A stretch of 64,000 nucleotides of DNA from an uncultured Armatimonadia bacterium (GTDB lineage: Bacteria > Armatimonadota > Zipacnadia > UBA1398 > CAZMGT01): positions 78,510 through 142,509 of the forward strand of contig CAZMGT010000002.1 in assembly GCA_964565895.1 (NCBI GenBank), read 5' to 3'. Positions 1-15,741 of this stretch are shown piece by piece. The notes under the pieces were generated by a model, which made no database searches, had not been told where the DNA came from, and saw only the letters and a list, made by a program, of their open reading frames with translations. The position numbers and the translations under genes are program-made. Position 1 is the first letter of the stretch. Each line of letters starts with the position of its first letter.

Positions 1-2
1 TT

Positions 3-2834
3 TGCTCTTGGCTTTCCGACCGCAGCTTGCGCGAGCTCTCGCTGGAGGAGATCGTGCGCGTGCTGCGGCCCGGGGGCGTGGCCATTTTAGGCCGCGCGCG
101 CACGCTGGGCGGGGGCAAGCTGAGCAGAGACGTGCTGCGCTCCTGGCTGGGCAAAGCCCCGGTGGGCGAGGTTTCTGTGCGCGAGAACATCTCCGGCCTG
201 TGGGGCTCGTTCGTTAAGCCCTTCCCCCAGGGGTTCGACGAGTGGACGCACTGGCAGCACGGGCCGGACAACAACCCCGTCTCCAAAGACACGCTAATCA
301 AGCCCCCATATATCACGCAGTACTTAGCCACGCCTTGGTTTTCCCCCATGCCCTCGATCTCCGTTATCGCCGGGGGGCGCATGTTCCGCGCCGCGGGGCA
401 CATGGCCATTCACGAACGCGAGGAGCGCTATCTGAACACGATCTACGCAACCAACGTATTCAACGGCTCGCTCCTCTGGACGCGGCCGATCCCCGTGGGC
501 TACCTCGCCCACCGCTCGCTGTTCGTGGCCACCGCGGAGACGCTATATCTCATCGAGCCTCATCGCTGCCTTCTTCTCGACCCGCAGACGGGCGTTAAGC
601 GCGACGAAATCGTTCTCCCGCCCGAGGACTTCGGCGGCGGCTACTGGCAGTGGATCGCCTATGACGATGGCGTGCTCTACGCTCTCCTTGGCGAGCGCGA
701 CTTTGAGGCGGAGATCATCAAGCGCAAGCGGCCCACCGGCGCCTGGGGCTGGAACCAGCTCTCGCGGGGATATTACACCAAGCAATATCCTTGGGGTTAT
801 GGCACGGTTCTCGTTGCGATAGACCCCAAGACTAAGCGCGTGCTGTGGAAGCATGAGGAGGACAAGCGAATTGACTCCCGTGCGCTGTGCATGGCCGCGG
901 GGCGCATTTTCCTACACAGCGAGGGGAACTTCGTCGCCTGTTTGGACCAAAAGACGGGGAAATTGCTTTGGAAAAACAGCGATCCCCGGCTTCTGCGGGC
1001 AATCTCCGAGCCGATTAACAAGGGCCTGGGGTTTAAGACCACTCCCTATGCCATTTGCACGGACAAGGCGCTGTATTTCGGCGGGCGCGGGCGGAAGAAC
1101 GTCGTCGCCGTCTCCGCCGAGGACGGGCGCCTGCTTTGGTATATCCCCGGGGCGTATAACGCGACGAACCTGTTGTTTTACGAGGGCAAGCTGCTCGCGC
1201 ACATTCCCTCGTGCACGATGCTCGACCCGCTGTCGGGGAAGGTGCTCAAGAACCTGCACATAAACAAGCGCTCGTGCACGCGGATGACCGCCTGCCCCGG
1301 CTACTTCTTCCACCGCGGGAGCTTCCCCAACGACGGCCGCGCGGGCGAGGGAACCATTCGCTACGACTTCGCCGCGGACAAGGCCACCGTGATCCACGCC
1401 TTCCGCCCCGCGTGCAACGACGGCCTGCTTCCCGTAGAGGGAATGCTCATCCGCACGCAGTGGGACTGCGACTGCAACCTCCAGCTCATTGGCTGCATTG
1501 GGCTGTGCCCCGCGGGCGACTTTGACTTCGGCCGCCAGGCGACGGAGGCGGAGCACCTGCAGCGCTTCGCCGCGCCGCCCGCCGGGGCCCCCGACCTCTC
1601 GCCCAGCGACTGGGCCACCTATCGCCACGACAACAGCCGCAGCGCGTTTACGCCCGTTGCCGTAGCGCGCGCCAAGCCGCAGGTAAAGTGGCAGCTTGCT
1701 CTGCGCGGCAGGTTTAAGCCCAGCCCAGCGACGGCGGCCTATGGCTTGGTGTTCGTCGCCGGCGCCGATGGCACGGTGCGCGCCATCGACGCGGCAAGCG
1801 GCGAGCTGCGCTGGCTGTTCTATACCGCGGGTCCCGTCCGCCTGCCCCCGGCGCTTGCGCGCGGCTGCGCCTACGTGGGCTCCGGCGATGGCTACATCTA
1901 CTGCCTAGACGCGGCAACGGGCAACCCCATCTGGCGTTTCCGCGCCGCCCCTGTCGAGCGGCGGATTATGGTCTACGGGGCGCTGTGCTCCACGTGGCCG
2001 GTGAACAGCGGTGTGCTCGTGCGCGACGGCGTGGCCTTTGCCGCAGCGGGGATCATCAACTACGACGGGACGCACGTCTATGCCCTGGACGCGGCGACGG
2101 GGAAGATCGTCTGGCAGAACAACACCTCCGGGCACCTGAACAAGGAGCTGCGCTGCGGGGTGTCCGCGGCGGGCGACCTGACCGTGCTCGACGGCAAGCT
2201 ATGGCTCGCTGGGGGCAATGTCGTCTCGCCCGCGGGCTATGACCTGCAAACGGGCCGGTGCATCAACAAGCCGCCCGGGCCGGGCTGGCCTGCCGCGCCG
2301 CGCGGCTCGGAGATCTGCGCCTTGATGGACGAGTTTGTCGCCGTCGGCGGCCGGAGGATGTATACCCAGGACGACGATTTCATTACCAACTGGCGGCCCT
2401 ATGAGGTGTATAACATAAAGGGCGCGGGGGCTAAGCTCCCGCACGTCCTGCAGGGGCGCGTGCCGCCGGCGTTTGGCAACGGGGCGGTGGCTATGTGCCC
2501 GCGCGGGCCGGTGGTCTGCGCGAGCTGGGACGAAGTTAAGCGGTGGCTGGCCAGCCCCCAGCGTGGCGCTCGGCTGAGGGTCCGCTGGAACACGCCCTCG
2601 TTGCAAAACGCCGTTGACGTGCTCATCGCCAACGACGTCGTGCTTGCCGCTGGCGAGGCGCGGCTTGAGAGCGCGGGCACGCCTTGGGCCGTCCAAGCGT
2701 TTGACGTTAACACAGGGCAGTTGCTCTGGAGCCACGCGCTTTCCGCGCCGCCTTTGCCCGGCGGGTTGTGCGTCGATCGTGAAGGTCGCATTATCGTTGT
2801 GCAAGAAGACGCAAGGGTCGTTTGCTTAAAATAA
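3..2834 (+). CDS. 5'-truncated CDS: tail of a class I SAM-methyltransferase fold fused to a PQQ-like (BamB-like) beta-propeller repeat protein
   Basis: The frame is open from the window edge, with no stop upstream of the TTG at 27. LRPGGVAIL resembles a methyltransferase post-motif. It is followed by repeated blades of the form YALDAATGK..W and YCLDAATGNPIW typical of PQQ/BamB propellers. Stop is at 2834. Confidence 0.6.
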   Translation, partial: CSWLSDRSLRELSLEEIVRVLRPGGVAILGRARTLGGGKLSRDVLRSWLGKAPVGEVSVRENISGLWGSFVKPFPQGFDEWTHWQHGPDNNPVSKDTLIKPPYITQYLATPWFSPMPSISVIAGGRMFRAAGHMAIHEREERYLNTIYATNVFNGSLLWTRPIPVGYLAHRSLFVATAETLYLIEPHRCLLLDPQTGVKRDEIVLPPEDFGGGYWQWIAYDDGVLYALLGERDFEAEIIKRKRPTGAWGWNQLSRGYYTKQYPWGYGTVLVAIDPKTKRVLWKHEEDKRIDSRALCMAAGRIFLHSEGNFVACLDQKTGKLLWKNSDPRLLRAISEPINKGLGFKTTPYAICTDKALYFGGRGRKNVVAVSAEDGRLLWYIPGAYNATNLLFYEGKLLAHIPSCTMLDPLSGKVLKNLHINKRSCTRMTACPGYFFHRGSFPNDGRAGEGTIRYDFAADKATVIHAFRPACNDGLLPVEGMLIRTQWDCDCNLQLIGCIGLCPAGDFDFGRQATEAEHLQRFAAPPAGAPDLSPSDWATYRHDNSRSAFTPVAVARAKPQVKWQLALRGRFKPSPATAAYGLVFVAGADGTVRAIDAASGELRWLFYTAGPVRLPPALARGCAYVGSGDGYIYCLDAATGNPIWRFRAAPVERRIMVYGALCSTWPVNSGVLVRDGVAFAAAGIINYDGTHVYALDAATGKIVWQNNTSGHLNKELRCGVSAAGDLTVLDGKLWLAGGNVVSPAGYDLQTGRCINKPPGPGWPAAPRGSEICALMDEFVAVGGRRMYTQDDDFITNWRPYEVYNIKGAGAKLPHVLQGRVPPAFGNGAVAMCPRGPVVCASWDEVKRWLASPQRGARLRVRWNTPSLQNAVDVLIANDVVLAAGEARLESAGTPWAVQAFDVNTGQLLWSHALSAPPLPGGLCVDREGRIIVVQEDARVVCLK

Positions 2835-2897
2835 GTTAAGCAGTTCAGGTGCCGGCGGCGGCTTCTGCCGGCCAACGCAAAAAAGGAGCCCTGGCAA

Positions 2898-4340
2898 ATG
2901 CCCAACATCCTGCCCGCTTGTGCCAAGCGAAGCGCAGCGAGCTTTGCCTTCTGCTGCCTCGTGGCGCTTGCCTGTTTGGCGCTGGGGGCCGCCCCGGCGC
3001 GGGCCTGCGACACGCCTGTGTTTCAATATGCTTTGTTCAACTGGGAGCCCGACCCCTACTACGTGTTCTACTTCCACCGCGGCGGGGAGAACCCCCAGGA
3101 CGCCGCGGCGAACAAGATCCTCGAGCAGGCCTCGGCCATGGACTCGTTCGCCAACCTCCTGTTCGATCGCGTAAACGTAGCCAACAAGCAGGAGGTCGCC
3201 CCGGGTGGCCTGCGCAGCAAAATCTGGGAGTACCACCGCTCGGAACGGCTTCCGTTTCACGTGGTAATCAGCCCCCAGGGCGTGGAGATTTACTTCGGCC
3301 GCCTTAGCGCCGCAGGAGCGCGCGCGTTGCTCGCCTCGCCCAAGCGCAAACAGGCCGCGCAACTGCTCTGCGACGGCAAGCAGGGCGTGCTTGTTTTGCT
3401 TAAGTGCTCGGACAAGGCGAAAAACGCCTCGGCGGAAAAAACCGTGCGCGCGGCGATCGCCCGCGCCGGCGACGAGGGGCTAAACGTTGGCTTTCTCTCC
3501 CTTGCCCGCAGCGACGGCTCCGAGAAATGGTTCGTGCGCCAGTTGCTGAACGTGGAGAGCGACCTTGAGGGGTTGGACGAACCCATGGTGTTCGGCATGT
3601 TCGGCAGGGGCCATGTGCTTGAGCCATTTGTGGGCAAGGGGATCACCGTGGAGAACATGCTCGACCTAATTGCGTTTATCAACGGCCCCTGTTCGTGCGA
3701 GATAAAGGCCTACAATCCAGGCGTAGACATCCTGCTTGATTGGGACTGGTCGAGCAAGATCGGCGAGTGGGCCTACGAGGAGCCTACGGACCGCTCCGGG
3801 CTGTTCTATGTGGAGTTCGAGGAGCCCTCGACCGAGGCCCCTGCGGAAAACGTGGCCATGGTTTCCGACGAGCCACAGGCCGCCCCTGCGGCCACGCCTT
3901 CGCCAACCGCGCGGGCCAAAAATGACCTGAGCAAGGCTACGCCGGCCACGCCCAAGGCGGGCAAGAAGACGCCAAAGCCTCGCCGCACAGCCGCGCCCAG
4001 CCCCACCGCCGCCCCAACGGCAACGGTGGCCTCCGCCGAAGCTGCGGGCAAACCCCCGCGCGAGCGCGCCGTTGCCGCGCTGCCCCAAAGCAAGGGCAAG
4101 ACCCCGCCCCAGGCAGGCGGCGCAGGAGGCGAGCCTGCCCCGCGCCAGCCGCAGGCGCAGGTAACCTGGGAGGAGCTGTTTGCCCTCGAGGCCACCCCCG
4201 CGGCGCAGAGCCCCGCGCTTGAGGACGACGACTCGTTCGTCTCCTCGCTTTCGTTAAAGCTCGGCTTGGGGCTGGGGGTGGGCATGGTCCTCGTGGTCAT
4301 CGGTGGCTTTGTACTGCTGCGAAGGTATGGTGAGAGATAA
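2898..4340 (+). CDS. hypothetical secreted protein with an N-terminal signal peptide, a globular Cys-containing domain, a Pro/Ala/Thr-rich linker and a C-terminal transmembrane anchor
   Basis: There is an AAGGAG RBS 8 nt upstream of the ATG. The signal peptide is CLVALACLALGAAPARA. A low-complexity linker (APSPTAAPTATVAS...) is followed by a C-terminal TM helix GVGMVLVVIGGFVLL. The stop lies 3 nt before the next gene. I recognise no family. Confidence 0.5.
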   Translation: MPNILPACAKRSAASFAFCCLVALACLALGAAPARACDTPVFQYALFNWEPDPYYVFYFHRGGENPQDAAANKILEQASAMDSFANLLFDRVNVANKQEVAPGGLRSKIWEYHRSERLPFHVVISPQGVEIYFGRLSAAGARALLASPKRKQAAQLLCDGKQGVLVLLKCSDKAKNASAEKTVRAAIARAGDEGLNVGFLSLARSDGSEKWFVRQLLNVESDLEGLDEPMVFGMFGRGHVLEPFVGKGITVENMLDLIAFINGPCSCEIKAYNPGVDILLDWDWSSKIGEWAYEEPTDRSGLFYVEFEEPSTEAPAENVAMVSDEPQAAPAATPSPTARAKNDLSKATPATPKAGKKTPKPRRTAAPSPTAAPTATVASAEAAGKPPRERAVAALPQSKGKTPPQAGGAGGEPAPRQPQAQVTWEELFALEATPAAQSPALEDDDSFVSSLSLKLGLGLGVGMVLVVIGGFVLLRRYGER

Positions 4341-4343
4341 GCG

Positions 4344-5108
4344 ATGAGAAAGCTTGCCCTGCTCGGTGTTGGCCTGGCGCTGTTGGTTTGCGGCTGTCCA
4401 AAGCAGGTGGAGCAGCGCGAAGTGAAAGAGGAGCAAAAGCTAACCGTGCTCTGCGGGGGTTCGTTCCGCCCGCCCATGGAGCGGCTGGCCAGCCTGTTCG
4501 AGGAGGAAACGGGCGTCGCCGTCGAGCTCTCGTTCGGCCAGAGCGAGGACCTTTTGCCCATCGTGAAAATCGGCAAAGAGGGCGACATTTTCGTCACCCA
4601 CGACCCCTACATGGACTATACCAAGGAAGCGAACGCGCTGCTCGACGCCGTGCAGGTGGGCTATGTCGCGCCGGTGCTTGTCGTGCGCAAGGGCAACCCC
4701 GCGGGCGTGAAGTCCATCGAGGACTTGGCCAAGCCCGGGGTAAAAGTCGCCCTGCCCAACCCGGAGTACTCCACCTGCGGCGAAATGCTCTTCCGCTTGC
4801 TTGAGAAAAAGGGCATTAAAGAAGCTGTTTTAAAGAACGCCGAAGGGGCGATCTTCCGCAGCCACTCCCAGACGGGCAACGCGCTAAAGCTGGGCACGCG
4901 CGACGCCGGGGTAATGTGGAACGGCGTGGCCCACACGTTCCGCGACGCTCTGGAGATTATCCCCACGCCTTATGAGTACGATGAGACGATTCGCGTGTGG
5001 GTCATGGGGCTGAGCTATTCCTCGAACACCGAGCTGGTGAAGCAGTTCCTCGACTTCGCCCGCGAAAAGGGCACGGAGGTTTTCGCGGAGTTCGGCTACG
5101 TCAAGTAG
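4344..5108 (+). CDS. modA: ModA-family periplasmic molybdate/tungstate-binding lipoprotein (paralog 1)
   Basis: A lipobox LLVCGC sits after the signal peptide. The core TVLCGGSFRPPMERLASLFEEETGVAVELSFGQSED..DIFVTHDPYMDY and the C-terminus KQFLDFAREKGTEVFAEFGYVK match the ModA pattern (..FKRYGF..K). Confidence 0.7.
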   Translation: MRKLALLGVGLALLVCGCPKQVEQREVKEEQKLTVLCGGSFRPPMERLASLFEEETGVAVELSFGQSEDLLPIVKIGKEGDIFVTHDPYMDYTKEANALLDAVQVGYVAPVLVVRKGNPAGVKSIEDLAKPGVKVALPNPEYSTCGEMLFRLLEKKGIKEAVLKNAEGAIFRSHSQTGNALKLGTRDAGVMWNGVAHTFRDALEIIPTPYEYDETIRVWVMGLSYSSNTELVKQFLDFAREKGTEVFAEFGYVK

Positions 5109-5137
5109 CGGCGGCGTCCGCGTAGGAGGACCGCGGC

Positions 5138-5914
5138 ATGCGTTTTTCGGGCGTCGGGCGCTGGGCAATAGTTTTCGCCGCCCTACTCGCTTGCGGCTGT
5201 GCCAAACAGGAGAAGGAAAAGCCCCTGCTTTATCTTTACTGCGGCGCGGGAATCCGCCCGCCCGTGTCCGAGATGGTCGCGGAGTTTGAGCGCAAGCAGG
5301 GGGTTAAGATGGAGTGCGACTACGCGGGCTCGGAGGTTCTGCTCAGCCGAATAAAGCTCTCCCGCCGCGGCGACTTATACATGCCCGGCGACGCGCGCTA
5401 TGTGGAGCAGGCGCGGCGCGAGGGCCTTATCCTTTCCTCCGTAGACGCCTGTTACTGGATCCCCGTGATCGTTGTGCAAAAGGGCAACCCAAAGGGCATC
5501 GAGAGCGTCGCCGACCTAACCAAGCCCGGCCTGCGCGTGGGCCTAGGCGACCCCACGGCCTGCGCCATCGGCAAAATTAGCGCAAGGGTGCTTAAGAAAA
5601 ACAACATCGCCGAGGAGGACATCGAGCCGAACATCGTCTTCCGCTCGCTTACCGTAAACGAGCTCGGCGTGCACATCAAGACGGGGAAGATCGACGCAGC
5701 CATCGTGTGGGACGGTATCGCCAACCTCTACGCAGACGTGGGCGACGTGGTGCGCATTCCCCCGGAGCAAAACGTGGTGTCCACCGTGCCGCTTGCCGTG
5801 CTCAAGTTCTCCCAGCACCCCGAGCTGGCGAAAAAATTTCAGCAGTTCGTTACCTCCCAGCGCGGGAAGGAGATCTTCGCTAAGTACGGCTACACCACGG
5901 AGCGCCCGGAGTAG
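5138..5914 (+). CDS. ModA-family periplasmic binding lipoprotein (paralog 2)
   Basis: A lipobox LLACGC is present. The layout parallels paralog 1 (VVQKGNPKGIESVADLTKPGLRVGL; C-terminus KKFQQFVTSQRGKEIFAKYGYT). It starts 30 nt after paralog 1. Confidence 0.7.
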   Translation: MRFSGVGRWAIVFAALLACGCAKQEKEKPLLYLYCGAGIRPPVSEMVAEFERKQGVKMECDYAGSEVLLSRIKLSRRGDLYMPGDARYVEQARREGLILSSVDACYWIPVIVVQKGNPKGIESVADLTKPGLRVGLGDPTACAIGKISARVLKKNNIAEEDIEPNIVFRSLTVNELGVHIKTGKIDAAIVWDGIANLYADVGDVVRIPPEQNVVSTVPLAVLKFSQHPELAKKFQQFVTSQRGKEIFAKYGYTTERPE

Positions 5915-5917
5915 AAC

Positions 5918-6739
5918 ATGAGCGCGGCGTATAGCGAAACGGAGTCTGTGCGCGGCTTTCGGGGGCTCCTCTTTTCCCTGGCGTTGTTTGCCTTTTTGGG
6001 CGTGTTTTTGCTCGGGATAATCGGCCTGCTCGCCGCCGACGCGGCCTACATTAACGCCGCGGCGTTTGCCGAGGTCCTCCGCTCGCCGCAAATCCGCGCG
6101 GCAACCTGGCTCAGCCTATGGACGACAACGCTCACCACGCTCATCGCCCTCGTGTTCGCCGTGCCCATCGGCTATGCGCTAAGCCGCTTTCGCTTCCCCG
6201 GCCGGTTCCTCGCGGACACGATTATTGACTTGCCCATCGTCTTTCCCCCGCTGGTCATGGGGCTTAGCTTGCTCGTGTTCTTCCGCACGCCCATCGGGCT
6301 GTGGCTGGAGTCGCTCGGCCTGGAGTTCGTCTATCAACGCAAGGGCATCGTGCTCGCTCAGTTTTTGGTTTCCGCCTCGTTTGGCATTCGCGCGATAAAG
6401 TCCACGTTCGACGATATCGACCGCCGGCAAGAGGAGGTTGCCCTTACCCTGGGCTGCAGCCGGGGCCAGGCGTTTTGGCGCGTCGCCGTGCCCAACGCGC
6501 GCAACGGCATCGTCGCTGGAGCAATCATCACCTGGGCTAGAGCGTTTGGCATTTTCGGCCCGCTGCTTGTGTTCGTAGGCGCCGTGCGCATGCGCACCGA
6601 AGTTCTCCCCACAACGATCTACTTGGAGACATCGATCGGGCGCATCGAAGTGGCCCTTGCCGTGGCCCTGCTCATGATTGTCCTGGCCTCGGTGGCTCTG
6701 GTGCTCATCCGGGTGTTTGCTGGGCCGAAGGTTTGGTGA
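5918..6739 (+). CDS. modB: ABC transporter permease, ModB-like
   Basis: It has several TM helices and an EAA-type loop (EVALTLGCSRGQAFWRVAVPNARNGIVAG). It starts 4 nt after the SBP gene. Confidence 0.7.
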   Translation: MSAAYSETESVRGFRGLLFSLALFAFLGVFLLGIIGLLAADAAYINAAAFAEVLRSPQIRAATWLSLWTTTLTTLIALVFAVPIGYALSRFRFPGRFLADTIIDLPIVFPPLVMGLSLLVFFRTPIGLWLESLGLEFVYQRKGIVLAQFLVSASFGIRAIKSTFDDIDRRQEEVALTLGCSRGQAFWRVAVPNARNGIVAGAIITWARAFGIFGPLLVFVGAVRMRTEVLPTTIYLETSIGRIEVALAVALLMIVLASVALVLIRVFAGPKVW

Positions 6740-6740
6740 G

Positions 6741-7838
6741 ATGATCCGCATCGAGAACCTGAGCCTGGTCGTAGAGCAGTTTTCCCTGCGCGAGATAACG
6801 CTTAACGTGCGCCCGCGGGAGTACTTCGTTCTTCTCGGCAAGCCGGGGAGCGGCAAAACGCTGCTCTTAGAGTGCGTCGCCGGCCTGCGCCGGCTGAGCG
6901 GCGGAGCAATCTACATCGGCGAGCGGCGCGTGGACCACCTCGAGCCCGCGCAGCGCGGCGTGGGCTACGTTCCCCAGGACTACGCCCTGTTTACGGGCAA
7001 GAGCGTGCGCGAGAACATTGAGTTTGGCCTGCGCGTGCGCGGGGTGCCCCGCGCCCAGCGCGAGCGGCGGGTGCGCGAGCTGGCGCGCGCGTTGGGCATC
7101 GAGTACTTGCTTGGCCGGCGGCGCGTGCACGGGCTGTCCGGAGGCGAGCGGCAGCGCGTGGCCCTTGCCCGGGCGCTTGCCCCGCGGCCGGCGATCCTCC
7201 TCCTCGACGAGCCCCTCAGCGCGCTCGACGAGGAAACGCGCGACGAGGTCCTCGCTGAGCTGCGTCGCATTCAGCAGCAAACGCAAACGACCACCCTGCA
7301 CGTGTGCCATAACTTGGACGAGATGCGCATGGTCGCCGACCGCGTGGGGATTCTCTCGCGCGGGCGGCTGGTGCAGGTCGGTGCGCCGCAGGAGATCGCC
7401 CGCAACCCGGCCACCGTGGAAGTCGCGCGACTGTTCCGCCTGGGAACGATCCTCAGCGGCGAGGCGCGGCCCACGCAGGGCCGGGCGATAATCTCGTTCG
7501 GCAGCTTCTCGTTAGCCTGCGCGCACAACTGCGCGGGGCCGGTGGACGTGCTCGTGCGCAGCGCGGCCATCGAGCTTGTCCCGGCCGAGGGCGAGCAGGG
7601 CTTGCCCGCGCAAGTCACCGGCCTGCTCTGGCGCGAAGCAACGGTGCAGGTGGACCTTGCCCTGCACGGGACGCCGCTGCGCGCGGAGCTTTTGCGCGAG
7701 CGCGCGGAGAACCTGCGCCTTGAGCGCGGCGGTGTTGTGCGCGTTGTCGTTCCGCCGGAGGCGCTTTGTGTCTTTCCCAAAGAAAAGCGCACGTGCTGCG
7801 TCTCACACGACGGTGCGCGCGAAAGCGAGGAGCAGTAG
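6741..7838 (+). CDS. modC: ABC transporter ATP-binding protein, ModC-like, with a C-terminal TOBE-like domain
   Basis: Walker A is GKPGSGKT, the signature is LSGGERQRVALARAL, and Walker B is LLLDEPLSALD. The start ATG at 6741 (MIRIENLSL) lies directly after the permease TGA at 6737-6739. The ORF-track start at 6678 is an in-frame upstream extension that overlaps modB, so I rejected it. Confidence 0.7.
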   Translation: MIRIENLSLVVEQFSLREITLNVRPREYFVLLGKPGSGKTLLLECVAGLRRLSGGAIYIGERRVDHLEPAQRGVGYVPQDYALFTGKSVRENIEFGLRVRGVPRAQRERRVRELARALGIEYLLGRRRVHGLSGGERQRVALARALAPRPAILLLDEPLSALDEETRDEVLAELRRIQQQTQTTTLHVCHNLDEMRMVADRVGILSRGRLVQVGAPQEIARNPATVEVARLFRLGTILSGEARPTQGRAIISFGSFSLACAHNCAGPVDVLVRSAAIELVPAEGEQGLPAQVTGLLWREATVQVDLALHGTPLRAELLRERAENLRLERGGVVRVVVPPEALCVFPKEKRTCCVSHDGARESEEQ

Positions 7839-8682
7839 ATGAGCGAGCAGAGAATTAGAATTTTTTCCGCCAAGGCTTGCGCCGCGCCGATCGAGGCCGC
7901 CGCGGAGCGGTTTCGCGAGGAGACGGGAATCGCCGTAGACCTCCTCGTCTGCCGCAGGCACTGCCACACACCCTACGCGGGCGAGGCCGAGGAAGCCGAT
8001 GTTGTCGGCACGCCGCATTTTCTCACCGAGGTCGCGGAGATCGCCGGCCTGGACCTCGTCGTCGCTGGGGCGAGCTATCTCGCCGACGACGGCGAGATCA
8101 TGGGCATTTTCGACCGCTCCGCGCGCCTGTGCCTAGGCTATCGGCGCTCTGCCCTGCTCGTTCAACCGGGCAACCCGAAGGGCATTCGTGCGCTGGCCGA
8201 CCTGGAGCGGGCGGATGTTACAGTGAGTGTTTCGGTCATCGACTGCTTAAAGGGCGCCTATGAGGACATCATTTGCGCAACGCACCGCAGCGAGCTAATT
8301 CGCCCCCAAATTAAGCTCTGGGCAAACGGCTGCGTGGCCCTTGTCGAGTCGGTGGCCCAGGGGCGCGTGGATGTGGGCTCTGCAGGAGGCGGGCGTCACG
8401 AGCCTGATGACGGTGGCCCAGGGGCGCGTGGATGTGGGGGTCGGCTGGTCGGCGTTCGAACATCTTGCCTCCGGGCGTGTCCAGATAATCGAGCTCAACG
8501 GCCCTGAGGCGATCGAGCGCGAGACAACGATTTCTCTGTGCAAAAACTCAGCTAACGGCGCGGCCGCGGAGCGGTTCTTGCAGTTTATCGCCGAGGGCGG
8601 GGCGGATGAGTTTCTCGCCCGCTACGGCTGGCTGCTCCCCGAGGCCCGCCGAAAGATCGTTCGGGAGGCGAAAGCAACATGA
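7839..8682 (+). pseudogene. third ModA-like binding-protein paralog with no signal peptide or lipobox, disrupted by a +1 frameshift caused by a 61-bp partial duplication
   Basis: The N-terminal part (7839-8380, frame 0) reads ..VQPGNPKGIRALADLERADVTVSV..LVESVAQGRVDVG and then runs into nonsense. The same motif restarts in frame +1 (8341-8682) as ..VAQGRVDVGVGWSAFEHLASG...ERFLQFIAEGGADEFLARYGW, which is a ModA C-terminus. The 28-mer cggtggcccaggggcgcgtggatgtggg occurs at 8351 and again at 8412. Confidence 0.6.
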
Positions 8683-9818
8683 GCATTGTCCGAATGCTTT
8701 TCCGGGAGATCGCCCACCGCAAGCTGAACTTCATCCTGGGGCTGATCTCCGTCGTCGCCGCGGTGGCCTTGTTCGTCGCCGTGCTCACCATGTGCGAGGC
8801 GTCCAAACGCGAGACCACGCGGCTCATGCGCGACTTGGGGTTTAACGTGCTCATCGTCCCCAAAAACACCAACATGGCCGACTTTTGGAGCGAGGACTAC
8901 GCTGCGGAGGACATGCCCGAGGAATACGTTTACCGCTTGGCCAACGCCCCGATCATGACCATTCGCCACCTCGTGGCGCGGTTGCAAAGAAAGGTAGAGT
9001 GGCGGGGGCGAAAGATCTTGCTCACCGGCGTGCTCCCCGAGGTGCCGCAGAAGCACCTCAGCCCCAAGCCCCCGATGGGGCTAAACATCCCGCGGGGGTC
9101 GGTTTACGTGGGCCATGAGCTGGCGAAAAGCTTTAACATCAAAGTCGGGCAGAAGATCGATATCCTGGGCAAAAAGTTCACCGTCGCCCGGCTGCTCAAA
9201 GAAAGCGGAAGCAAGGACGACATTCGCATCTACGGCCACCTGCACGACATCCAAGAGGTGCTCGGCCTGCCCGGGCGGATTAACGAGATCGAGGCGCTTA
9301 GCTGCCGCTGCTTCGGCGATCGCTTGGCGAGCATCCGGCAAGACATCGCCGCCGTCCTCCCCGACACCCACGTTACGGAGTTTCGCACGAAAGCCATTGC
9401 CCGCGCCGAGACGCGCAAAATGGTCGAGCGCTACGCGGCGTTTATCATCCCCGCGGTGCTCGTGATGACCGCGGTGTGGATCGGCGTTCTCACGCTGATG
9501 AACGTGCGCGAGCGGCGCGAGGAGATCGGCATTTTGCGGGCGCTGGGCGTGGGCTCGGGGCCGATTGCTGCGTTGTTTATCGGCCGCGCGCTGGTTGTCG
9601 GGATCGTGGGCGCGGGGTTGGGTTTTGCGCTGGGGACGTGGGTTGCTCTGCGCGTGGGGCCGAATATATTCTCGCTTACGGCAAACAAAATTAGCCCGAT
9701 GTTTGCCCTGCTTGGCTGGTCGCTGGTCGGGGCGCCGCTGCTCTGCGCGTTGGCCAGCTACCTGCCGGCAATGGCTGCTGTGTTGCAAGATCCCGCGGAG
9801 GTGCTACAGGAAGAATAG
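8679..9818 (+). CDS. FtsX-like / MacB-LolC-type ABC transporter permease
   Basis: TM1 (ILGLISVVAAVALFVAVL) is followed by a roughly 220-aa extracytoplasmic domain and three C-terminal TM helices carrying the conserved GILRALG motif. It overlaps the upstream frame by 4 nt. Confidence 0.65.
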   Translation: MSIVRMLFREIAHRKLNFILGLISVVAAVALFVAVLTMCEASKRETTRLMRDLGFNVLIVPKNTNMADFWSEDYAAEDMPEEYVYRLANAPIMTIRHLVARLQRKVEWRGRKILLTGVLPEVPQKHLSPKPPMGLNIPRGSVYVGHELAKSFNIKVGQKIDILGKKFTVARLLKESGSKDDIRIYGHLHDIQEVLGLPGRINEIEALSCRCFGDRLASIRQDIAAVLPDTHVTEFRTKAIARAETRKMVERYAAFIIPAVLVMTAVWIGVLTLMNVRERREEIGILRALGVGSGPIAALFIGRALVVGIVGAGLGFALGTWVALRVGPNIFSLTANKISPMFALLGWSLVGAPLLCALASYLPAMAAVLQDPAEVLQEE

Positions 9819-9820
9819 CG

Positions 9821-10519
9821 ATGATTACCGTAGAGGACGTGAGCAAGGTTTTCTCGCGCGGTGAGGAGCAGGTGCGCGCGTTGGATGGCGTCTCGCTGTC
9901 TGTGGAGCGCGGGGAGTTCGTCGCCGTGCGCGGCCCGAGCGGCTCGGGCAAGACTACGCTGCTGCTCACCGTGGGCGGCATGGTCCGGCCGAGCGCGGGG
10001 CGCGTGGTTGTCGATGGCCAGGACGTCTACGCCCTATCTGCGCCCCAGCGCGCTGCGCTTAGGGCGGAGAAGATCGGCTTTGTCTTTCAAATGTTCCACC
10101 TCGTGCCCTATCTTTCTGTTTTGGAAAACGTGCTTATGCCGACGCTCGCCGGCTGCCGTGCGGGCCGCAAGGAGGCCGAGGAGCTGCTCGACTACCTCGG
10201 CCTGAGCCACCGCCTGCGCCATCGCCCGGCCGAGCTGAGCACGGGCGAGCGCCAGCGCGTGGCCATTGCCCGCGCGTTGTTAAAAAAGCCCGCGGTTATC
10301 CTTGCCGACGAGCCCACGGGCAACCTCGACCCGGACAACTCCGAGCAGGTGTTGCGCTACCTCGCCGACTTCCACCGCGGCGGGGGCACGGTGCTCCTCG
10401 TCTCGCACGAGCCGATTGCCGACCGCTACGCCGACCGTGTGCTATTTTTGCGCGCGGGCAAGCTGGTCGAGCCCAACGGGCCGGCGGCGGGGGCGGAGGC
10501 CCAAAGCCAGCCCGCCTAG
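9821..10519 (+). CDS. ABC transporter ATP-binding protein, LolD/MacB family
   Basis: Walker A is GPSGSGKT. The Q-loop and signature read [15 protein letters not shown] and [11 protein letters not shown]. It starts 3 nt after the permease. Confidence 0.7.
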
Positions 10520-11673
10520 CGCAGCGGGTTAAGCCAAATGTCTAGCCGGGGCGTGTCCCAGTTGTAGGGCTTGCCCAGGACGTCCAGGTCGCCGTCGCCA
10601 TCGAGGTCGGCCAGCTTAGATTCGTGGTTGCCGTAGCCCACGGCGATGGTCGTCTTGCGGAAGTGGCCCTGGCCGTCGCCCAGCAAAAGCCACATTTGCG
10701 CGTCGTCGTTGCCTCCGTTCAGGCGCATCTCGGCGCAGAAAATATCGTTGTTCCCATCGCCGTTGACGTCGGCAATGGCCACGCTGTGCCCGTGGTCCAC
10801 GGCGATGCCCAGCGGGTCGTGCCCCACCCAGCGGCCAGCGCGCCACTCATACCACTTCAGCGGGCCGGTGCCGTCGCCGACGACGAAGGCGACCTCCGGC
10901 CGCCCGCCGGCGACGAGCTGGCCTGCTGCGCAGCGGGTAAAGCGTTGCTTGTCGTCGATTACCTCGGCGACGAACTTGCCCCCGCCCACGTGCTTAAACC
11001 AGCAGCCGCCGCCCACGATGTCCACCGTGCCGTCGAGGTCAATATCCGCCGCGGCAAGGCCCTCCGATTCGCGCGGCGAGGTGAATATTGGAGCATATGG
11101 CCAGGGCTCGGTGTTTTTCGGGTCGTCGGGGACCTCCGCAAAGAACAGCTTGTTCGCCCGCTGGTTCCAAAAGACAAGCTCGGGCTGGCCGTCGCCGTCG
11201 AAGTCGCCGAAGAGCTGGTCGTGGTGCTTTTTCGCGCCGGAGTTTTTGATCAGCCGGCGCTTCCAGGGCTTAGAGAAATCCGGCCGCGGGTTCTCCCACC
11301 ACCACACCTCGTTGCTTCGGCTGTCGCCGCCCATGACGATGTCTAAGTCCCCGTCCTTGTCGATGTCGCAATATGCCCCGCCGGCCTCGATGGGCAGCAC
11401 CCCGGGCTCGATGACCCGCCTCTGCCAGCCGCCGGCCGTGCGCCGATACCAAACGAGCGCCGGCCCCGCCCTGCGGCAGCCAATGACGATATCGTTTAAC
11501 CCGTCGCCGTCCACATCGAACACGAGCGACGCCGTCTGCTGCTTGGACTTGCTCGGCGGCTCTAAGTCGCCCGTCCTGCTAGAGAGGTGCTTCCATGTCG
11601 GCTGCGCGGCCAAGCCAAGCGCAGCGAGCGCCGGCAGGCAGGCCGCAACAAGCGCCAATTTCCGCGCGCGCAT
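10516..11673 (-). CDS. secreted FG-GAP / VCBS-like repeat protein
   Basis: The signal peptide is LALVAACLPALAALGLAA. Repeated DxDGDGxxD(I/L) calcium-binding turns appear (DVDGDGLNDIV, DIDKDGDLDIV, DFDGDGQPELV, DVNGDGNNDIF, DLDGDGDLDVL). It converges on, and overlaps by 4 nt, the ABC ATPase stop. Confidence 0.6.
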   Translation of the reverse strand: MRARKLALVAACLPALAALGLAAQPTWKHLSSRTGDLEPPSKSKQQTASLVFDVDGDGLNDIVIGCRRAGPALVWYRRTAGGWQRRVIEPGVLPIEAGGAYCDIDKDGDLDIVMGGDSRSNEVWWWENPRPDFSKPWKRRLIKNSGAKKHHDQLFGDFDGDGQPELVFWNQRANKLFFAEVPDDPKNTEPWPYAPIFTSPRESEGLAAADIDLDGTVDIVGGGCWFKHVGGGKFVAEVIDDKQRFTRCAAGQLVAGGRPEVAFVVGDGTGPLKWYEWRAGRWVGHDPLGIAVDHGHSVAIADVNGDGNNDIFCAEMRLNGGNDDAQMWLLLGDGQGHFRKTTIAVGYGNHESKLADLDGDGDLDVLGKPYNWDTPRLDIWLNPLR

Positions 11674-11718
11674 CTGCCGCTCACCTCCGGTTGGGCGAAG
11701 AAAAGATGCTCCGCGGCG

Positions 11719-13953
11719 TCATTGCCCTGCGCTATAGATAATCGCCGGCTTTACGATGCCCCCGAGGGCAAGCTCGGTCATTCGCCGGTGGTCTACGCAA
11801 ACCGCGATAACATTGACCTTCCCCGGCCGCGCTACCTGCGAAATGTCTACCTCAAACGGCTTGCGCCGCTTCTCGCTCTGGCCCACCTTCCGCCCGTTAA
11901 CGTAAACGGTGGCCAACCCGTCGATCTCGGCAAACCACAGGCGCAGGCGTTCGCGCGGGGCGTCCGGGGGAATGGTTACCCGCGTGCGATACCACATCCA
12001 AGTAAAGCGGTCGGGCAGGCCTTGGTTGCCCAGCGTCGCTGAGTACGTGGCCACCTCGCGCCAGCCGCTGTCGTCAAACCCGGGCTCGGCAAATCCGCGC
12101 TCCTCGCCAACGCCCTCCTCGTCGTAGGCCAGCCGCCAGCGGTCGGGCAGTTGCAGGACGAGGCGGTTCGGCGGCGTGGTGCGCTGATATCCTTCTTCGA
12201 TCGCCGGCGCGAGGAACCGCTCCACATAGCCCGGCGTATAGTGGTTTACCAGCCCCTCGTCGAGCAGGTTTTTCAGGTGCGCGCGCAGCTCGTCAAGCGT
12301 CTTTTTCGCCGCGGCAAAGTCCGCGCGGTTTGTCGCCTCGAAAATCGCCCGATAGTACTTCGCGTTCTCCAGCCCGCGCAAGAACATGCGCACGCGCTCT
12401 CGCTGAACGTCGCTTTGCGCGGCGGCGAGCGCTTGGTTTAGGTCGCGCTCGCACTGGGCGAGCAGCTCCGGCGTATATATGCGGTCAAGCCCGAAGAAGC
12501 AGCCGGCGTGGGTTGCGGTTGTCGCAAATGCGCGGTCGATGCGCTCCCAATAGCGTTTAACATGGGCCGCCGCGGGGCCGAAGAGCTTGGTGTAAAAGTC
12601 GTCCATAATTGCCGCGGGGTCCTGCCTGGGGTCCCAGGCAAGCCGCGCGCTGAGGTAAATGTGCGGCGCGTAGATGCACCAGGAGTTAATCGTCTCCAGA
12701 TTGAGCGCCTCAAAGCCAAGCTTTTTCAGCAAGGGAATATCGTGCGCGTAGATGGAAACCTTGGAAAACGGTACGAGGCACTCCGCCAAGTTGTACTCGT
12801 AGCCCCTGTAGCCCTTGCGCGAAACATAGCGGTCCCAGCCTCGGATGATCTCAAGCAGGCGCTTGCGCGAGGGGCAAATGTCGCTCCCGATGGCGTGCAG
12901 CCGGCAGAAGCGAATGGGGGCGAGCCACATCATAAGGTTCGGCGGGGCGTGCTCTGCATGGCGCGGGGGAAGCGTGTAGTCGGAATAGGCGTAAAAGCAG
13001 AGGATTTTCTCGGGGAACCGCTGCGCAACGCGCCGCGCGACTTCGTTGAAAAACACCATAAACCGGTCCGACATGCACACCGTCCCGCTGGAGGGGTCGA
13101 TGTATGTCGGGTCGTCCAGGGCGCGGCAGTTTGCGCACTGGCAAAAGTGGCGGCCGTCGTCTGGGCTGAGCGAGGCGGAGACGAGCTCTGGGTTGGCCTC
13201 AAACCGCCGGATAATGTTTTCCGCAACAAGCCGCACAACATCGGGGTTTGAGGTGCACAACTGCCCTGGCGCGCGCCGGCCGTCTACCAGAGGATAGTAC
13301 TCCGGGTGCGTGTCGAAATACTGCTTTGGGGGCAGGAGGCGCGACCAGGCGTGGCCCGTCTCCAGGCGCAGCCCGCCCACGCGGTTCCACAGCTTCCAGC
13401 GCGACTCGCGCGCCCAGCGGCTGCCCCAAATCTTGCGTGTGCAAAACGCCGGCCTTTGCTCAACGTCGAGCGCGGGCAAGCGCACCGTGCTCGCCCGGGG
13501 GACGACTTCGCCCAGCGGGTGGTCGAAAAACAGCCGAAACCCCAGCCTCTCGAGCAGGGCAAACGCGCCATAGAGCACGGCGCGCGGCGACTCGCCGGCG
13601 ATGAGCACGCGGCCGTCCTCTACGCGAAGGCGAAAGCCCTCCCTGCTCAAGCTCTGCCCGGCAACGGTTAGTCCGGCGCGCTCGGCCAGCTCGCCCAAAA
13701 GCACAGGCACGGGCTCCTCGGGCACCGCCCTCCCCGCCGGCCACTGCCGCACGGCAAGCCTCGCCCCGGACATTTTCTCAATCGCCGCGGCAAGCTCTTC
13801 CGCAGCGCGCTGCACATCCTGCGGCGCCCCCTCGGCGATATATATCGCTGCCCGCGCCTGCCCGCGCTCCACAAGCGTGCACTCGCCGAACGCAGCACCG
13901 GCCAGGGCAAACAGCAACACCAAGAGCACCACGCTGCGCGGCATGGCCGTCAT
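11719..13953 (-). CDS. secreted DUF4838-like protein with a C-terminal GH2-type sugar-binding (galactose-binding-like) domain
   Basis: A signal peptide is present. The N-terminal region is typical of PVC DUF4838 proteins. The C-terminus has WMWYRTRVTIP..LWFAEIDGLATVYVNGRKVG (jelly-roll of GH2 N-terminal domains). This is a family-level call only. Confidence 0.45.
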   Translation of the reverse strand: MTAMPRSVVLLVLLFALAGAAFGECTLVERGQARAAIYIAEGAPQDVQRAAEELAAAIEKMSGARLAVRQWPAGRAVPEEPVPVLLGELAERAGLTVAGQSLSREGFRLRVEDGRVLIAGESPRAVLYGAFALLERLGFRLFFDHPLGEVVPRASTVRLPALDVEQRPAFCTRKIWGSRWARESRWKLWNRVGGLRLETGHAWSRLLPPKQYFDTHPEYYPLVDGRRAPGQLCTSNPDVVRLVAENIIRRFEANPELVSASLSPDDGRHFCQCANCRALDDPTYIDPSSGTVCMSDRFMVFFNEVARRVAQRFPEKILCFYAYSDYTLPPRHAEHAPPNLMMWLAPIRFCRLHAIGSDICPSRKRLLEIIRGWDRYVSRKGYRGYEYNLAECLVPFSKVSIYAHDIPLLKKLGFEALNLETINSWCIYAPHIYLSARLAWDPRQDPAAIMDDFYTKLFGPAAAHVKRYWERIDRAFATTATHAGCFFGLDRIYTPELLAQCERDLNQALAAAQSDVQRERVRMFLRGLENAKYYRAIFEATNRADFAAAKKTLDELRAHLKNLLDEGLVNHYTPGYVERFLAPAIEEGYQRTTPPNRLVLQLPDRWRLAYDEEGVGEERGFAEPGFDDSGWREVATYSATLGNQGLPDRFTWMWYRTRVTIPPDAPRERLRLWFAEIDGLATVYVNGRKVGQSEKRRKPFEVDISQVARPGKVNVIAVCVDHRRMTELALGGIVKPAIIYSAGQ

Positions 13954-14433: not shown

Positions 14434-15741
14434 CTACTGCCCCTCGCGCAGGGTAAACTTTATCGGCTGGCCCTCGCGGTCGGTAATCCGCGCGACAAGG
14501 CCCCACCGCCCACGCCCCTGCAGAACCTTAAACAGCAGCTTGTTTACCCCGGCCTCAAGCCGCGCTTGAACGACGTCCTGGTCGACCTTCAGCCCCCGCG
14601 TAACGTTGATCGCGTGAATGCGCTTGCCGTTGAGGTAAACCACAACGCCGTCGTCGCTGCCCAGCTTAAGCAAAACGTCCTGCGCCTGGGGAACGGTTAC
14701 CTCGGCGTAGACGAATGCGCAGACATTGTCCAACCGACCGACGGCGCGCTCCAAGTCAACGTGCCCGTCGCCGGGATCGCCGTTGACAAATTTCCACGCG
14801 ATCTCCCGCTGCTCTCCGGCCACGGTTACCGTGTACTTGGCGCCCAGGTCCACGCCCTGCTCCGGGGGCAGCGTCTGCTCAAATGCCGCGCCGCCCTTAT
14901 TGGGCCAGGGCCCGATGACGAACCACTTGCTCAGGAATCCCTGCAGCGCGCAGAGGTCCGTGCCCGGCGCGGGCCAGTTGTCGGGAATGGGAATGGTTAC
15001 CTCGCCCGTGGCCGCCCACTCCGTCCCGCGGCGGACGACCGTTTTAAACGGGACATCGTGCGCGCGCAGGTCGTGGCCCATAACCACTTGGAACACGCGC
15101 CCCTTGCCGTAGTTGACCGTCCAGAACATGGGCTCGTCGCGCCCTGTGCCCCGCGTCTTGGGGTCGGAATACGCTGTGGCGAGCAGGGTAATGTTCTCCT
15201 GCATGCGCAGCCGGTGATAGAGCTCGTCGATGCTGTGCTGAAAGTCGGGCATGTCGCGGGTGATCGGGTGCTCGTGGTTTACGATTTTTACCACATAGGA
15301 ATGCTTCGCTCCGTGGCCCGAGCCCTTGCGCCAGGCGCCACCGATGAGCTTCTCGTATTCCGGCCAGTCGGGAAACGCGTTGTTTGCGGCGTGAATGACG
15401 ACGAACCCGCCCCCCTCGCGCACATACTGGAGCAGGCCCTGCTCCGCGGCTTCGCCCCAGCGCGGGCCGTTGTAGTCGCTGAGCAGGGCGTCGTACTGCT
15501 TAAACGTCTCCAGCGTGCACTTGGCGGGCTCATAGGTAATGTCGCAGACAAACCGCCCGCAGCTTTCTAAGATCTCTTTCAGCGCGGGGGTCGTCTTGCG
15601 CCAATCGTGGTTGTTCGCGCCGGAGAGAATAAGGATTTTCAGCTTTCGCGGCTGCTCCTGAGCAGCCGCCGCGGAGGCCATTGCCCCCAGAGCGAAACAC
15701 AAACACAAACCAGCGACAAAGCAACGCACAACGCGGCTCAT
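14434..15741 (-). CDS. ThuA-family (class I glutamine-amidotransferase-like) secreted protein with a C-terminal beta-sandwich domain
   Basis: The signal peptide is MSRVVRCFVAGLCLCFALGAMASAAAA. The ThuA core is KILILSGANNHDW...GGGFVVIHAANNAF...FWTVNYGKGRVFQ. I moved the start to the internal ATG at 15741. Confidence 0.6.
   Translation of the reverse strand: MSRVVRCFVAGLCLCFALGAMASAAAAQEQPRKLKILILSGANNHDWRKTTPALKEILESCGRFVCDITYEPAKCTLETFKQYDALLSDYNGPRWGEAAEQGLLQYVREGGGFVVIHAANNAFPDWPEYEKLIGGAWRKGSGHGAKHSYVVKIVNHEHPITRDMPDFQHSIDELYHRLRMQENITLLATAYSDPKTRGTGRDEPMFWTVNYGKGRVFQVVMGHDLRAHDVPFKTVVRRGTEWAATGEVTIPIPDNWPAPGTDLCALQGFLSKWFVIGPWPNKGGAAFEQTLPPEQGVDLGAKYTVTVAGEQREIAWKFVNGDPGDGHVDLERAVGRLDNVCAFVYAEVTVPQAQDVLLKLGSDDGVVVYLNGKRIHAINVTRGLKVDQDVVQARLEAGVNKLLFKVLQGRGRWGLVARITDREGQPIKFTLREGQ

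Follow-up and report, generated by a model that had tools for sequence, protein, structure and literature searches.

A row of genes, named g0 to g7 in 5' to 3' order, was analysed in a 64-kb window (the whole stretch of DNA under study) of contig CAZMGT010000002.1 from an uncultured Armatimonadia bacterium. It encodes an ATP-binding cassette (ABC) importer of the ModA type, a third binding protein without a leader peptide and an FtsX/MacB-type permease with its ATPase, preceded by an exported protein of thioredoxin fold. We tentatively propose, at close to an even chance, that this cluster is a conserved, undescribed system for a tetrahedral group VI oxyanion resembling sulfate; the substrate would most likely be a sulfur species such as sulfate, thiosulfate or sulfite. 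The proposal draws on the gene neighbourhoods of relatives and on protein profiles. The features are given below; coordinates are positions in the window, and all genes of the row lie on the plus strand.

27-2834, +, PQQ_2 beta-propeller protein (Pfam PQQ_2, 1.4e-40), 5' end probably cut by the window edge
2898-4340, +, g0, exported, C-terminally membrane-anchored tandem thioredoxin-fold protein, as predicted from an AlphaFold2 (AF2) model, Foldseek and the family alignment
4344-5108, +, g1, lipoprotein binding protein (SBP_bac_11, 5e-42)
5138-5914, +, g2, second lipoprotein binding protein (SBP_bac_11, 9e-53)
5918-6739, +, g3, type I ABC importer permease of the molybdate/sulfate/tungstate permease group (BPD_transp_1; TIGR01581)
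6741-7838, +, g4, importer ATPase with a C-terminal TOBE-like domain (ABC_tran, 8e-29; weak TOBE_3)
7839-8507, +, N-terminal frame of g5 (frame 0, 222 aa): residues 1-180 leaderless, Cys-lined SBP_bac_11, then 42 out-of-frame residues
8377-8682, +, C-terminal part of g5 in frame +1, with a 4-nt overlap with the start codon of g6
8350-8438, +, insertion scar in g5: a 28-nt perfect direct repeat (8350-8377 and 8411-8438) around a 33-nt filler (8378-8410)
8679-9818, +, g6, type VII (MacB/FtsX-type) permease with four transmembrane helices (MacB_PCD and FtsX)
9821-10519, +, g7, ATPase of the LolD/MacB/FtsE group (ABC_tran, 9e-34), last gene of the row

Gene neighbourhoods and the candidate substrate

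Synteny was assessed by a pattern scan with one genome per species, which gave 70 loci; counts are given over 72 loci. The sample consists entirely of metagenome-assembled genomes (MAGs), mostly of Planctomycetota, with some Verrucomicrobiota, Lentisphaerota, Nitrospirota and Armatimonadota. Neighbours were annotated by BLAST with the window proteins and with Pfam-labelled neighbours from two further loci; this query set is limited, and rare neighbours lie outside the catalogue. The recurrent genes were as follows.

Half-size TauE gene (159 aa) directly upstream of g5: 51 of 72 loci
g1/g2: 35 of 72 loci
g3/g4: 27 of 72 loci
g6/g7: 18 of 72 loci, 15 with g3/g4 and 10 with g0
PQQ_2 propeller: 11 of 72 loci, flanking the cluster or between g0 and g6
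Sulfate-assimilation or Cys/Met genes (3'-phosphoadenosine-5'-phosphosulfate (PAPS) reductase, sulfite reductase-TusA, PALP enzymes, MetY, ThiS/ThiF/JAB): 18 of 72 loci
NifS/NifU/ThiG/ThiH/PP-loop genes: 10 of 72 loci
MFS_MOT1: 11 of 72 loci, including L007, L024, L046, L055, L058-L060 and L062-L064
ChrA: 2 of 72 loci

This genomic context points to sulfur. In locus L072 the gene order is Rrf2, PAPS_reduct, TauE, g5, PALP, ThiS, ThiF, JAB, PALP and NIR_SIR-TusA, and operons like this one surround g5 in several other loci. At L009, the genes g1, g2, g0, g6 and g7 lie beside Rrf2, PAPS reductase, TauE, g5 and PALP, all within 9.5 kb. Downstream of NifU, NifS, PP-loop, ThiG and ThiH, g5 was found in seven or eight loci. 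No gene for the molybdenum cofactor (moa, moe, mog), modE or a molybdo- or tungstoenzyme is recurrent in the 72 loci. The first-pass annotation, made from the DNA letters, had suggested that molybdate or tungstate is taken up and handed over; that idea finds no contextual support, since sulfur-assimilation genes recur and genes for the molybdenum cofactor or molybdenum enzymes do not. The carrier families involved (TSUP, ChrA and MOT1-type) would, by analogy, fit sulfate-like anions. ChrA and MOT1-type carriers also handle such anions. For the TSUP family, CysZ (TSUP/DUF81) of Corynebacterium glutamicum is treated as a model sulfate transporter (PMC5840216), and its gene sits in the assimilatory sulphate-reduction cluster cysIXHDNYZ (PMC5840216; PMC1266029). 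The TauE protein encoded before g5 matches just positions 126-237 of the 237 positions of the profile.

The nearest relative is an Armatimonadota MAG (L001/L002), in which the order PQQ protein-g0-g1-g2-g3-g4-g5-g6-g7 is that of the window at 59-79% identity. There, g5 is uninterrupted and g7 is followed by a ChrA gene. In planctomycetes the usual order is g1, g2, TauE, g5, often two small membrane proteins, g3 and g4, to which several loci add g0, the PQQ protein, g6 and g7; at L073 the whole gene set is present. The arrangement of the window, without TauE, is common to the Armatimonadota relatives, a Victivallis MAG (L010) and L021. In relatives, g2 stands directly upstream of TauE-g5, also at loci that have no ABC permease close by.

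The importer and the FtsX module occur together in 15 of the 27 importer loci, from Planctomycetota, Verrucomicrobiota, Lentisphaerota and Armatimonadota. Because of this co-occurrence their juxtaposition is not regarded as accidental, and its recurrence in four phyla argues against chance. The module is separable, since its side and orientation vary relative to the importer. The linkage of the two, on which the first-pass annotation remarked, is therefore non-random but not fixed. The same annotation looked to the Planctomycetota-Verrucomicrobiota-Chlamydiota (PVC) group for relatives; most family members are indeed planctomycetal, but the closest relatives are Armatimonadota MAGs.

Conserved Cys residues recur in ligand-site, periplasmic or membrane positions of g0, g1, g2, g3, g5 and g6, a pattern that suggests a thiol-reactive ligand or redox control. 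In the mechanism that we propose, g1 and g2 would deliver the anion to the importer, as Sbp and CysP share CysTWA. The g5 protein would work in the cytoplasm at a secondary carrier, where it would accept or sense the anion or a thiol-reactive derivative of it. The g6/g7 pair would act on periplasmic g0 by ATP-driven mechanotransmission, paralleling FtsEX-EnvC, LolCDE-LolA, MacB-MacA and YbbAP-TesA. In the window genome, g5 might have decayed once its carrier partner was lost. It is possible, but doubtful, that three modules cooperate in this way: a ModA-type importer, a half-size TSUP carrier that is served by a binding protein and has a cytoplasmic, Cys-lined acceptor of the solute-binding protein (SBP) fold, and a type VII ABC pair working on a periplasmic tandem-thioredoxin protein. 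Equally doubtful is that Planctomycetota, Verrucomicrobiota, Lentisphaerota and Armatimonadota would use such a three-module machine to acquire sulfur or some other anion that reacts with thiols.

Other genes were observed at these loci. The two small membrane proteins, which have 155 and 123 aa and no Pfam match, are conserved in 11 loci (L073, 7809-8647, and 10 others, e.g. L012, L016, L036, L041 and L054), where their genes separate g5 from the permease gene; they are not present in the window. Between the binding-protein genes and TauE-g5, L073 (3569-4513), L031 and L056 encode a TP_methylase protein (tetrapyrrole-methylase fold) with an apparent lipoprotein signal peptide. The signal is predicted, and an exported member of this S-adenosylmethionine (SAM)-dependent family would be odd. 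Upstream of g1 in L051, L052, L065 and L069 are genes for a sigma factor of the extracytoplasmic function (ECF) type, an anti-sigma factor with H-x3-C-x2-C (zinc-binding anti-sigma-like) and a methyltransferase-fold lipoprotein; in these loci, annotated Pirellulales or Phycisphaerae, the sigma/anti-sigma set may be a dedicated regulatory unit. The PQQ_2 orthologue of L001 (1794-4994) is fused to SAM-methyltransferase domains.

The importer and the broken third binding-protein gene

Families were called with Pfam and NCBIfam profiles, and the equivalog bit-score cutoffs of NCBIfam were used as membership tests. Searches with each gene agreed with the families assigned at first pass. Seven open reading frames (ORFs) had been described there. 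Six of them (g1, g2, g3, g4, g6 and g7) are intact at the coordinates given above, whereas the fifth is frameshifted and the row begins earlier, with g0, whose end lies 3 nt from the start of g1. The intergenic gaps along the row are 29, 3, 1, 0 and 2 nt. Of the range first reported (-4 to +30 nt), the -4 overlap of g5 with g6 holds only for the shifted frame. The PQQ_2 propeller gene stops 63 nt before g0. The row ends at g7 because convergent minus-strand genes come next, encoding an FG-GAP repeat protein (10516-11673), a DUF4838 protein with glycoside-hydrolase accessory domains (11719-13953) and a ThuA-like protein (14437-15741); these look unrelated to the cluster. A promoter and terminator scan gave nothing above shuffled background, and an Rfam search of window positions 1-12000 returned no match, including none to a molybdenum cofactor (Moco) riboswitch.

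By their profiles, g1, g2, the homodimer-type ModB-like g3 and the TOBE-tailed g4 form a predicted type I importer. They place it in the group of molybdate, tungstate and sulfate transporters but do not discriminate between the three. The two binding proteins were correctly annotated as lipoproteins, their lipobox Cys being conserved among orthologues (g1 C18, 95%; g2 C21, 91%). Against the modA model TIGR01256 (cutoff 62.5 bits), g2 scores above the cutoff (80.7 bits) and g1 below it (57.4 bits), and g5 repaired as described below has no NCBIfam match. With the sulfate SBP model TIGR00971 the scores are 24.3 and 16.9 bits, and its cutoff of 155.5 is not reached. The closest PDB sequence matches of both are ModA proteins. 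In Escherichia coli ModA the oxyanion is hydrogen-bonded by Ser12, Ser39, the Ala125 backbone and Tyr170. When aligned with this protein, g1 has S40, S67, C145 and W192 at the respective positions, and g2 keeps the Ser39 equivalent alone. The binding loops of g1 carry the additional conserved residues C37 and C145; those of g2 carry C35 and C142, conserved in 89% and 94% of orthologues.

The permease g3, in which C180 is invariant, barely passes TIGR01581 ('Mo_ABC_porter'; 214.1 bits, cutoff 210.3). It falls below the cutoffs for modB (157.4 bits, cutoff 182.6), the sulfate permease TIGR00969 (149.6 bits, cutoff 240) and WtpB (147 bits). The best NCBIfam match of g4 is WtpC (293.5 bits, cutoff 440), aligned over positions 1-341, and the ATG at 6741 is the start that fits position 1 of this model. 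The modC model (187.8 bits, cutoff 285.05) and the sulfate ATPase model TIGR00968 (185.7 bits, cutoff 342.75) are not reached. The earlier label of ModC-TOBE holds as to the ABC_tran ATPase; the TOBE_3 match is weak and sub-threshold (20.4 bits, cutoff 27).

The first-pass annotation treated the third binding-protein gene as one ORF. However, the g5 frame that opens at 7839 stops at 8507 after 222 codons, and the conserved C-terminus lies in frame +1 and continues to 8682. The frameshift is caused by a 61-nt insertion, made up of the 33-nt filler and a duplicated 28-mer. Deletion of these 61 nt in silico yields a 260-aa protein (SBP_bac_11, 7e-19) that retains all 46 family-invariant residues, and because these survive the lesion is considered recent. 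The relatives match just one version of the duplicated segment, the upstream one ('LWANGCVALVES', version A), which carries an invariant Cys ('NGC'). Neither the rest of the window nor any relative or other locus has a counterpart of the filler. A simple tandem duplication was rejected on these grounds, the filler being without counterpart and the invariant 'NGC' being in version A alone. An assembly artefact was also rejected. The same 61-nt structure occurs in JGI contig Ga0190363_1018001, which was assembled separately and over its 3228 nt shows 2 substitutions relative to the window; for this reason the insertion is taken as real DNA. The same 222-aa truncated product is present in a public protein database (P0002).

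Gene fission, with internal re-initiation in a split gene, was also considered. The filler holds AGGAGG (8384-8389) and an in-frame ATG at 8407. Re-initiation there is unlikely because the spacing is 17 nt, against about 6-10 nt at the real starts of the cluster. The g5 frame is intact in 21 complete database homologues and in all relatives examined. Absence or decay of the third gene in all relatives, which the first-pass annotation said would make the juxtaposition accidental, is thus not the case. The 64-kb window yielded no homologue of TauE or ChrA when its ORFs of 60 aa or more were searched, and we infer that decay of g5 after loss of its carrier partner fits this absence.

A search of 5.8 billion proteins with g5 returned the window's own truncated product, the 21 complete homologues of about 250 aa and one distant match. 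With the g5 profile, 35 of 1.84 billion representatives were found at E < 1e-30, and the family is accordingly small. Every aligned member is without a signal peptide, as was first seen in this copy. The invariant residues include C14, C38-x-R40-H41-C42, D135-C136-L-K138-G, G164-C165, W183, H188, R207 and T209, all of which are in the repaired window sequence. The divergent binding loop pointed out at first pass proved to be an invariant family motif: C-x-R-H-C lies inside an 18-residue insertion that replaces the Ser39 loop of ModA. Mapped by alignment to g1, g2 and E. coli ModA, the five invariant Cys, the His and the basic residues lie at or beside the predicted anion-binding cleft loops. 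The AF2 model has the SBP fold (pLDDT 91.1), and its best structural matches are PEB3, AcfC and ModA (Foldseek, E = 1e-16 for PEB3/AcfC). Against solved structures the g5 profile scores 57-58 bits with PEB3/AcfC and 25 bits with ModA. The label of ModA-like is thus right as to the SBP_bac_11 family, but g5 is nearer to PEB3/AcfC than to ModA. No Rosetta-stone fusion of TauE and g5 was found, and the candidates were rejected: the long matches of the g5 profile are g2-like binding proteins, tandem or N-terminally extended. Some of these (P0192 and P0097) are longer by an additional domain of about 170 aa at the N-terminus, or are duplicated in tandem.

The type VII module and its candidate partner

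Profiles bore out the description of g6 and g7 as an FtsX/MacB permease with a LolD/MacB-like ATPase. The permease matches FtsX (PF02687, 8e-14) and MacB_PCD (PF12704, 3.7e-07), its PDB relatives MacB, YtrF, LolF and LolE are all weak, and its periplasmic domain has an invariant C209-x-C211. The best matches of g7 are LolD, MacB and FtsE. With a four-helix FtsX-type permease, a periplasmic MacB_PCD domain and a cognate ATPase, g6 and g7 form a type VII ABC pair. A LolCDE identity was rejected because both proteins are far below the Lol equivalog cutoffs (g6, 55.2 bits on lolCE, cutoff 362.45; g7, 220 bits on LolD, its best match, cutoff 307.75).

The first-pass annotation regarded the absence of a periplasmic adaptor as a puzzle, and indeed none of the genes between 27 and 10519 has a HlyD/MacA adaptor domain. 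However, the conserved upstream gene g0 had been overlooked. It has no Pfam or NCBIfam match. Its family (27 homologues) has a signal peptide, a mature N-terminus A-C-D-T-P-V-Y, an invariant G-P-C-S-C-E, a linker rich in Pro and Ala and a membrane anchor at the C-terminus; for g0 itself, the signal peptide and the C-terminal transmembrane helix were read from the sequence. A triad of Cys is invariant (C37 and C265-x-C267). The periplasmic domain was modelled with AF2 at a pLDDT of 91.9, and in Foldseek it matches paired thioredoxin folds (PDI a-b, ERp57 bb' and calsequestrin). The low global TM-scores of these matches are consistent with a different orientation of the domains in the model.

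In 10 loci g0 adjoins g6/g7. Characterised type VII ABC systems each work with a dedicated periplasmic partner (PMC12646458), and for this reason g0 is likely the periplasmic partner of g6/g7, a candidate that would answer the adaptor puzzle. At two loci (L077, 4879-7210; L078, 10001-11975) a LolD-like ATPase gene and then a response regulator come directly after a distant g0-like gene, without an FtsX permease; to find an ATPase paired with a single-pass thioredoxin-fold protein is unusual.

Alternative readings and known systems

Several points weigh against a sulfur system. The sulfur context is mainly tied to the TauE-g5 pair, and sulfur genes accompany any of g1-g4 in 9 loci only; in the window itself no sulfur-assimilation gene was identified. 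The binding proteins g1 and g2 are nearer by profile to ModA than to sulfate-binding proteins, with about 20 bits on the sulfate models, and g2 passes the modA cutoff. An MFS_MOT1 gene precedes TauE-g5 or g5 in the 11 loci counted above. The FtsX module is missing from 12 of the 27 importer loci, and more distant g0-like genes occur alone or with just an ATPase, which again shows this module to be separable. Finally, the relatives are known only from MAGs.

Some of these points would suit the uptake of molybdate or tungstate, with a cytoplasmic third copy that receives or senses the metal, perhaps, in view of the Cys-lined sites, in the form of thiomolybdate or thiotungstate in sulfidic habitats. 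The modA score of g2, the passing of 'Mo_ABC_porter' by g3, the tungstate ATPase WtpC as best match of g4, the Ser12 and Ser39 equivalents kept by g1 and the ModA proteins found in the PDB for g1 and g2 all agree with it. Nevertheless, we consider it unlikely. Neither moa, moe, mog and modE nor a gene for a molybdenum or tungsten enzyme recurs where sulfur-assimilation genes do, no Moco riboswitch or other Rfam match was found, g3 and g4 are below the modB and modC cutoffs, and g5 is closer to PEB3/AcfC. The family MFS_MOT1 (PF16983) is named for eukaryotic molybdate transporters, and its genes beside TauE-g5 would be a further argument for these metals; however, in four loci (L055, L058, L063 and L064) they lie within sulfate-assimilation clusters, which hints that the bacterial members may carry sulfate.

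It is also rather unlikely that two or three independent systems are merely adjacent, with an ordinary importer for oxyanions lying beside an orphan binding-protein gene in decay and a Lol/MacB-like module unrelated to them. The varying side and orientation of the FtsX module and its absence from 12 of the 27 importer loci are in keeping with this, as are g0-like genes without importer genes, the occurrence of g5 without g1-g4 in about half of the loci and its broken state in the window. On the other side, the modules stay together in the 15 loci of four phyla despite rearrangement, genes in the window lie 0 to 3 nt apart and in one case overlap by 4 nt, and the closest relative keeps the identical g0-g7 order at just 59-79% identity. 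The Cys theme is common to g0, g1, g2, g3, g5 and g6, and g6 and g7 are far from the Lol cutoffs. The same Cys (five with a His in g5, the triad of g0, C-x-C of g6 and the binding-loop or membrane Cys of g1, g2 and g3) might instead be ligands for another thiophilic species, such as As(III), Sb(III), a soft metal or selenium, and methyltransferase-like lipoproteins and the methyltransferase-PQQ protein do recur nearby. This is very unlikely: ars, cop, czc and mer genes and metal-responsive regulators are not recurrent, the permease belongs to the molybdate/sulfate/tungstate group, and sulfur assimilation is the sole recurrent metabolic context. A sulfur oxyanion is thus the substrate that we tentatively prefer.

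If the sulfur reading is true, many bacteria of the PVC group and Armatimonadota would acquire sulfur by a route unlike the textbook systems CysPTWA, SulP and CysZ. A cytoplasmic, Cys-lined member of the periplasmic-binding-protein fold that works with a half-size TSUP carrier would be new, and the known periplasmic partners of type VII ABC mechanotransmitters would be joined by another kind, a thioredoxin-fold protein. The g0 family and the two small membrane proteins are without functional annotation and g5 has just the generic SBP_bac_11 label; the conserved neighbourhood gives each of them a testable hypothesis. The interest lies at the level of the family more than in the window genome. 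Since a key gene is inactivated there, the organism is a poor model, and relatives with an intact g5 are better suited.

In the literature searched, we found no description of the conserved association, the leaderless Cys-lined SBP family, the half-size TSUP pairing or the thioredoxin-fold FtsX companion. The remark at first pass that no such architecture was known agrees with this search. The parts come from known superfamilies, and the cluster fails the equivalog tests for ModBC, WtpBC, CysPTWA, LolCDE and MacB. It resembles ModABC/WtpABC in its SBP_bac_11 lipoproteins, single ModB-type permease gene and ATPase with a TOBE-like tail, as well as in the modA score of g2 and the two ligand Ser of g1. 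It differs from them in having two tandem binding proteins with binding-loop Cys, a permease and ATPase below the modB, modC and WtpBC cutoffs, no molybdenum or tungsten genes nearby, and an attached leaderless, Cys-lined third copy and type VII ABC module.

In CysPTWA/Sbp, by which Enterobacteria import sulfate and thiosulfate, two binding-protein paralogues feed one translocator. The present cluster likewise has two binding proteins for one importer and a group VI oxyanion as its proposed substrate, and its relatives are linked to sulfate-assimilation genes. However, its binding proteins are ModA-sized (about 230 aa when mature, unlike Sbp and CysP) and reach about 20 bits with the models for sulfate SBPs, and it has one permease gene where CysPTWA has CysT and CysW. 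As with CysZ/TSUP of C. glutamicum, the relatives of g5 often lie in sulfate-assimilation operons, directly after a TauE-family gene in 51 of 72 loci. Unlike the TSUP carriers, this partner is half-size and coupled to a cytoplasmic SBP-fold protein, a kind of partner for TSUP carriers that was not described in the literature searched; the window is without TauE. MacAB-TolC, LolCDE-LolA, FtsEX-EnvC and YbbAP-TesA (PMC12646458) are like the cluster in that a non-transporter gene (here g0) accompanies g6/g7 in several relatives. In contrast, the cluster is without a HlyD/MacA adaptor and its candidate partner would be a C-terminally anchored tandem-thioredoxin-fold protein; the periplasmic domain of g6 has its invariant C-x-C, and the scores are far below the Lol, MacB and FtsX cutoffs. 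PEB3 and AcfC are the nearest solved relatives of g5 by profile and fold and have the loop before the 'GlWED' helix in common with it. These two proteins are secreted and have no Cys-lined cleft, whereas g5 is leaderless and carries the 18-residue C-x-R-H-C insertion and three further invariant Cys.

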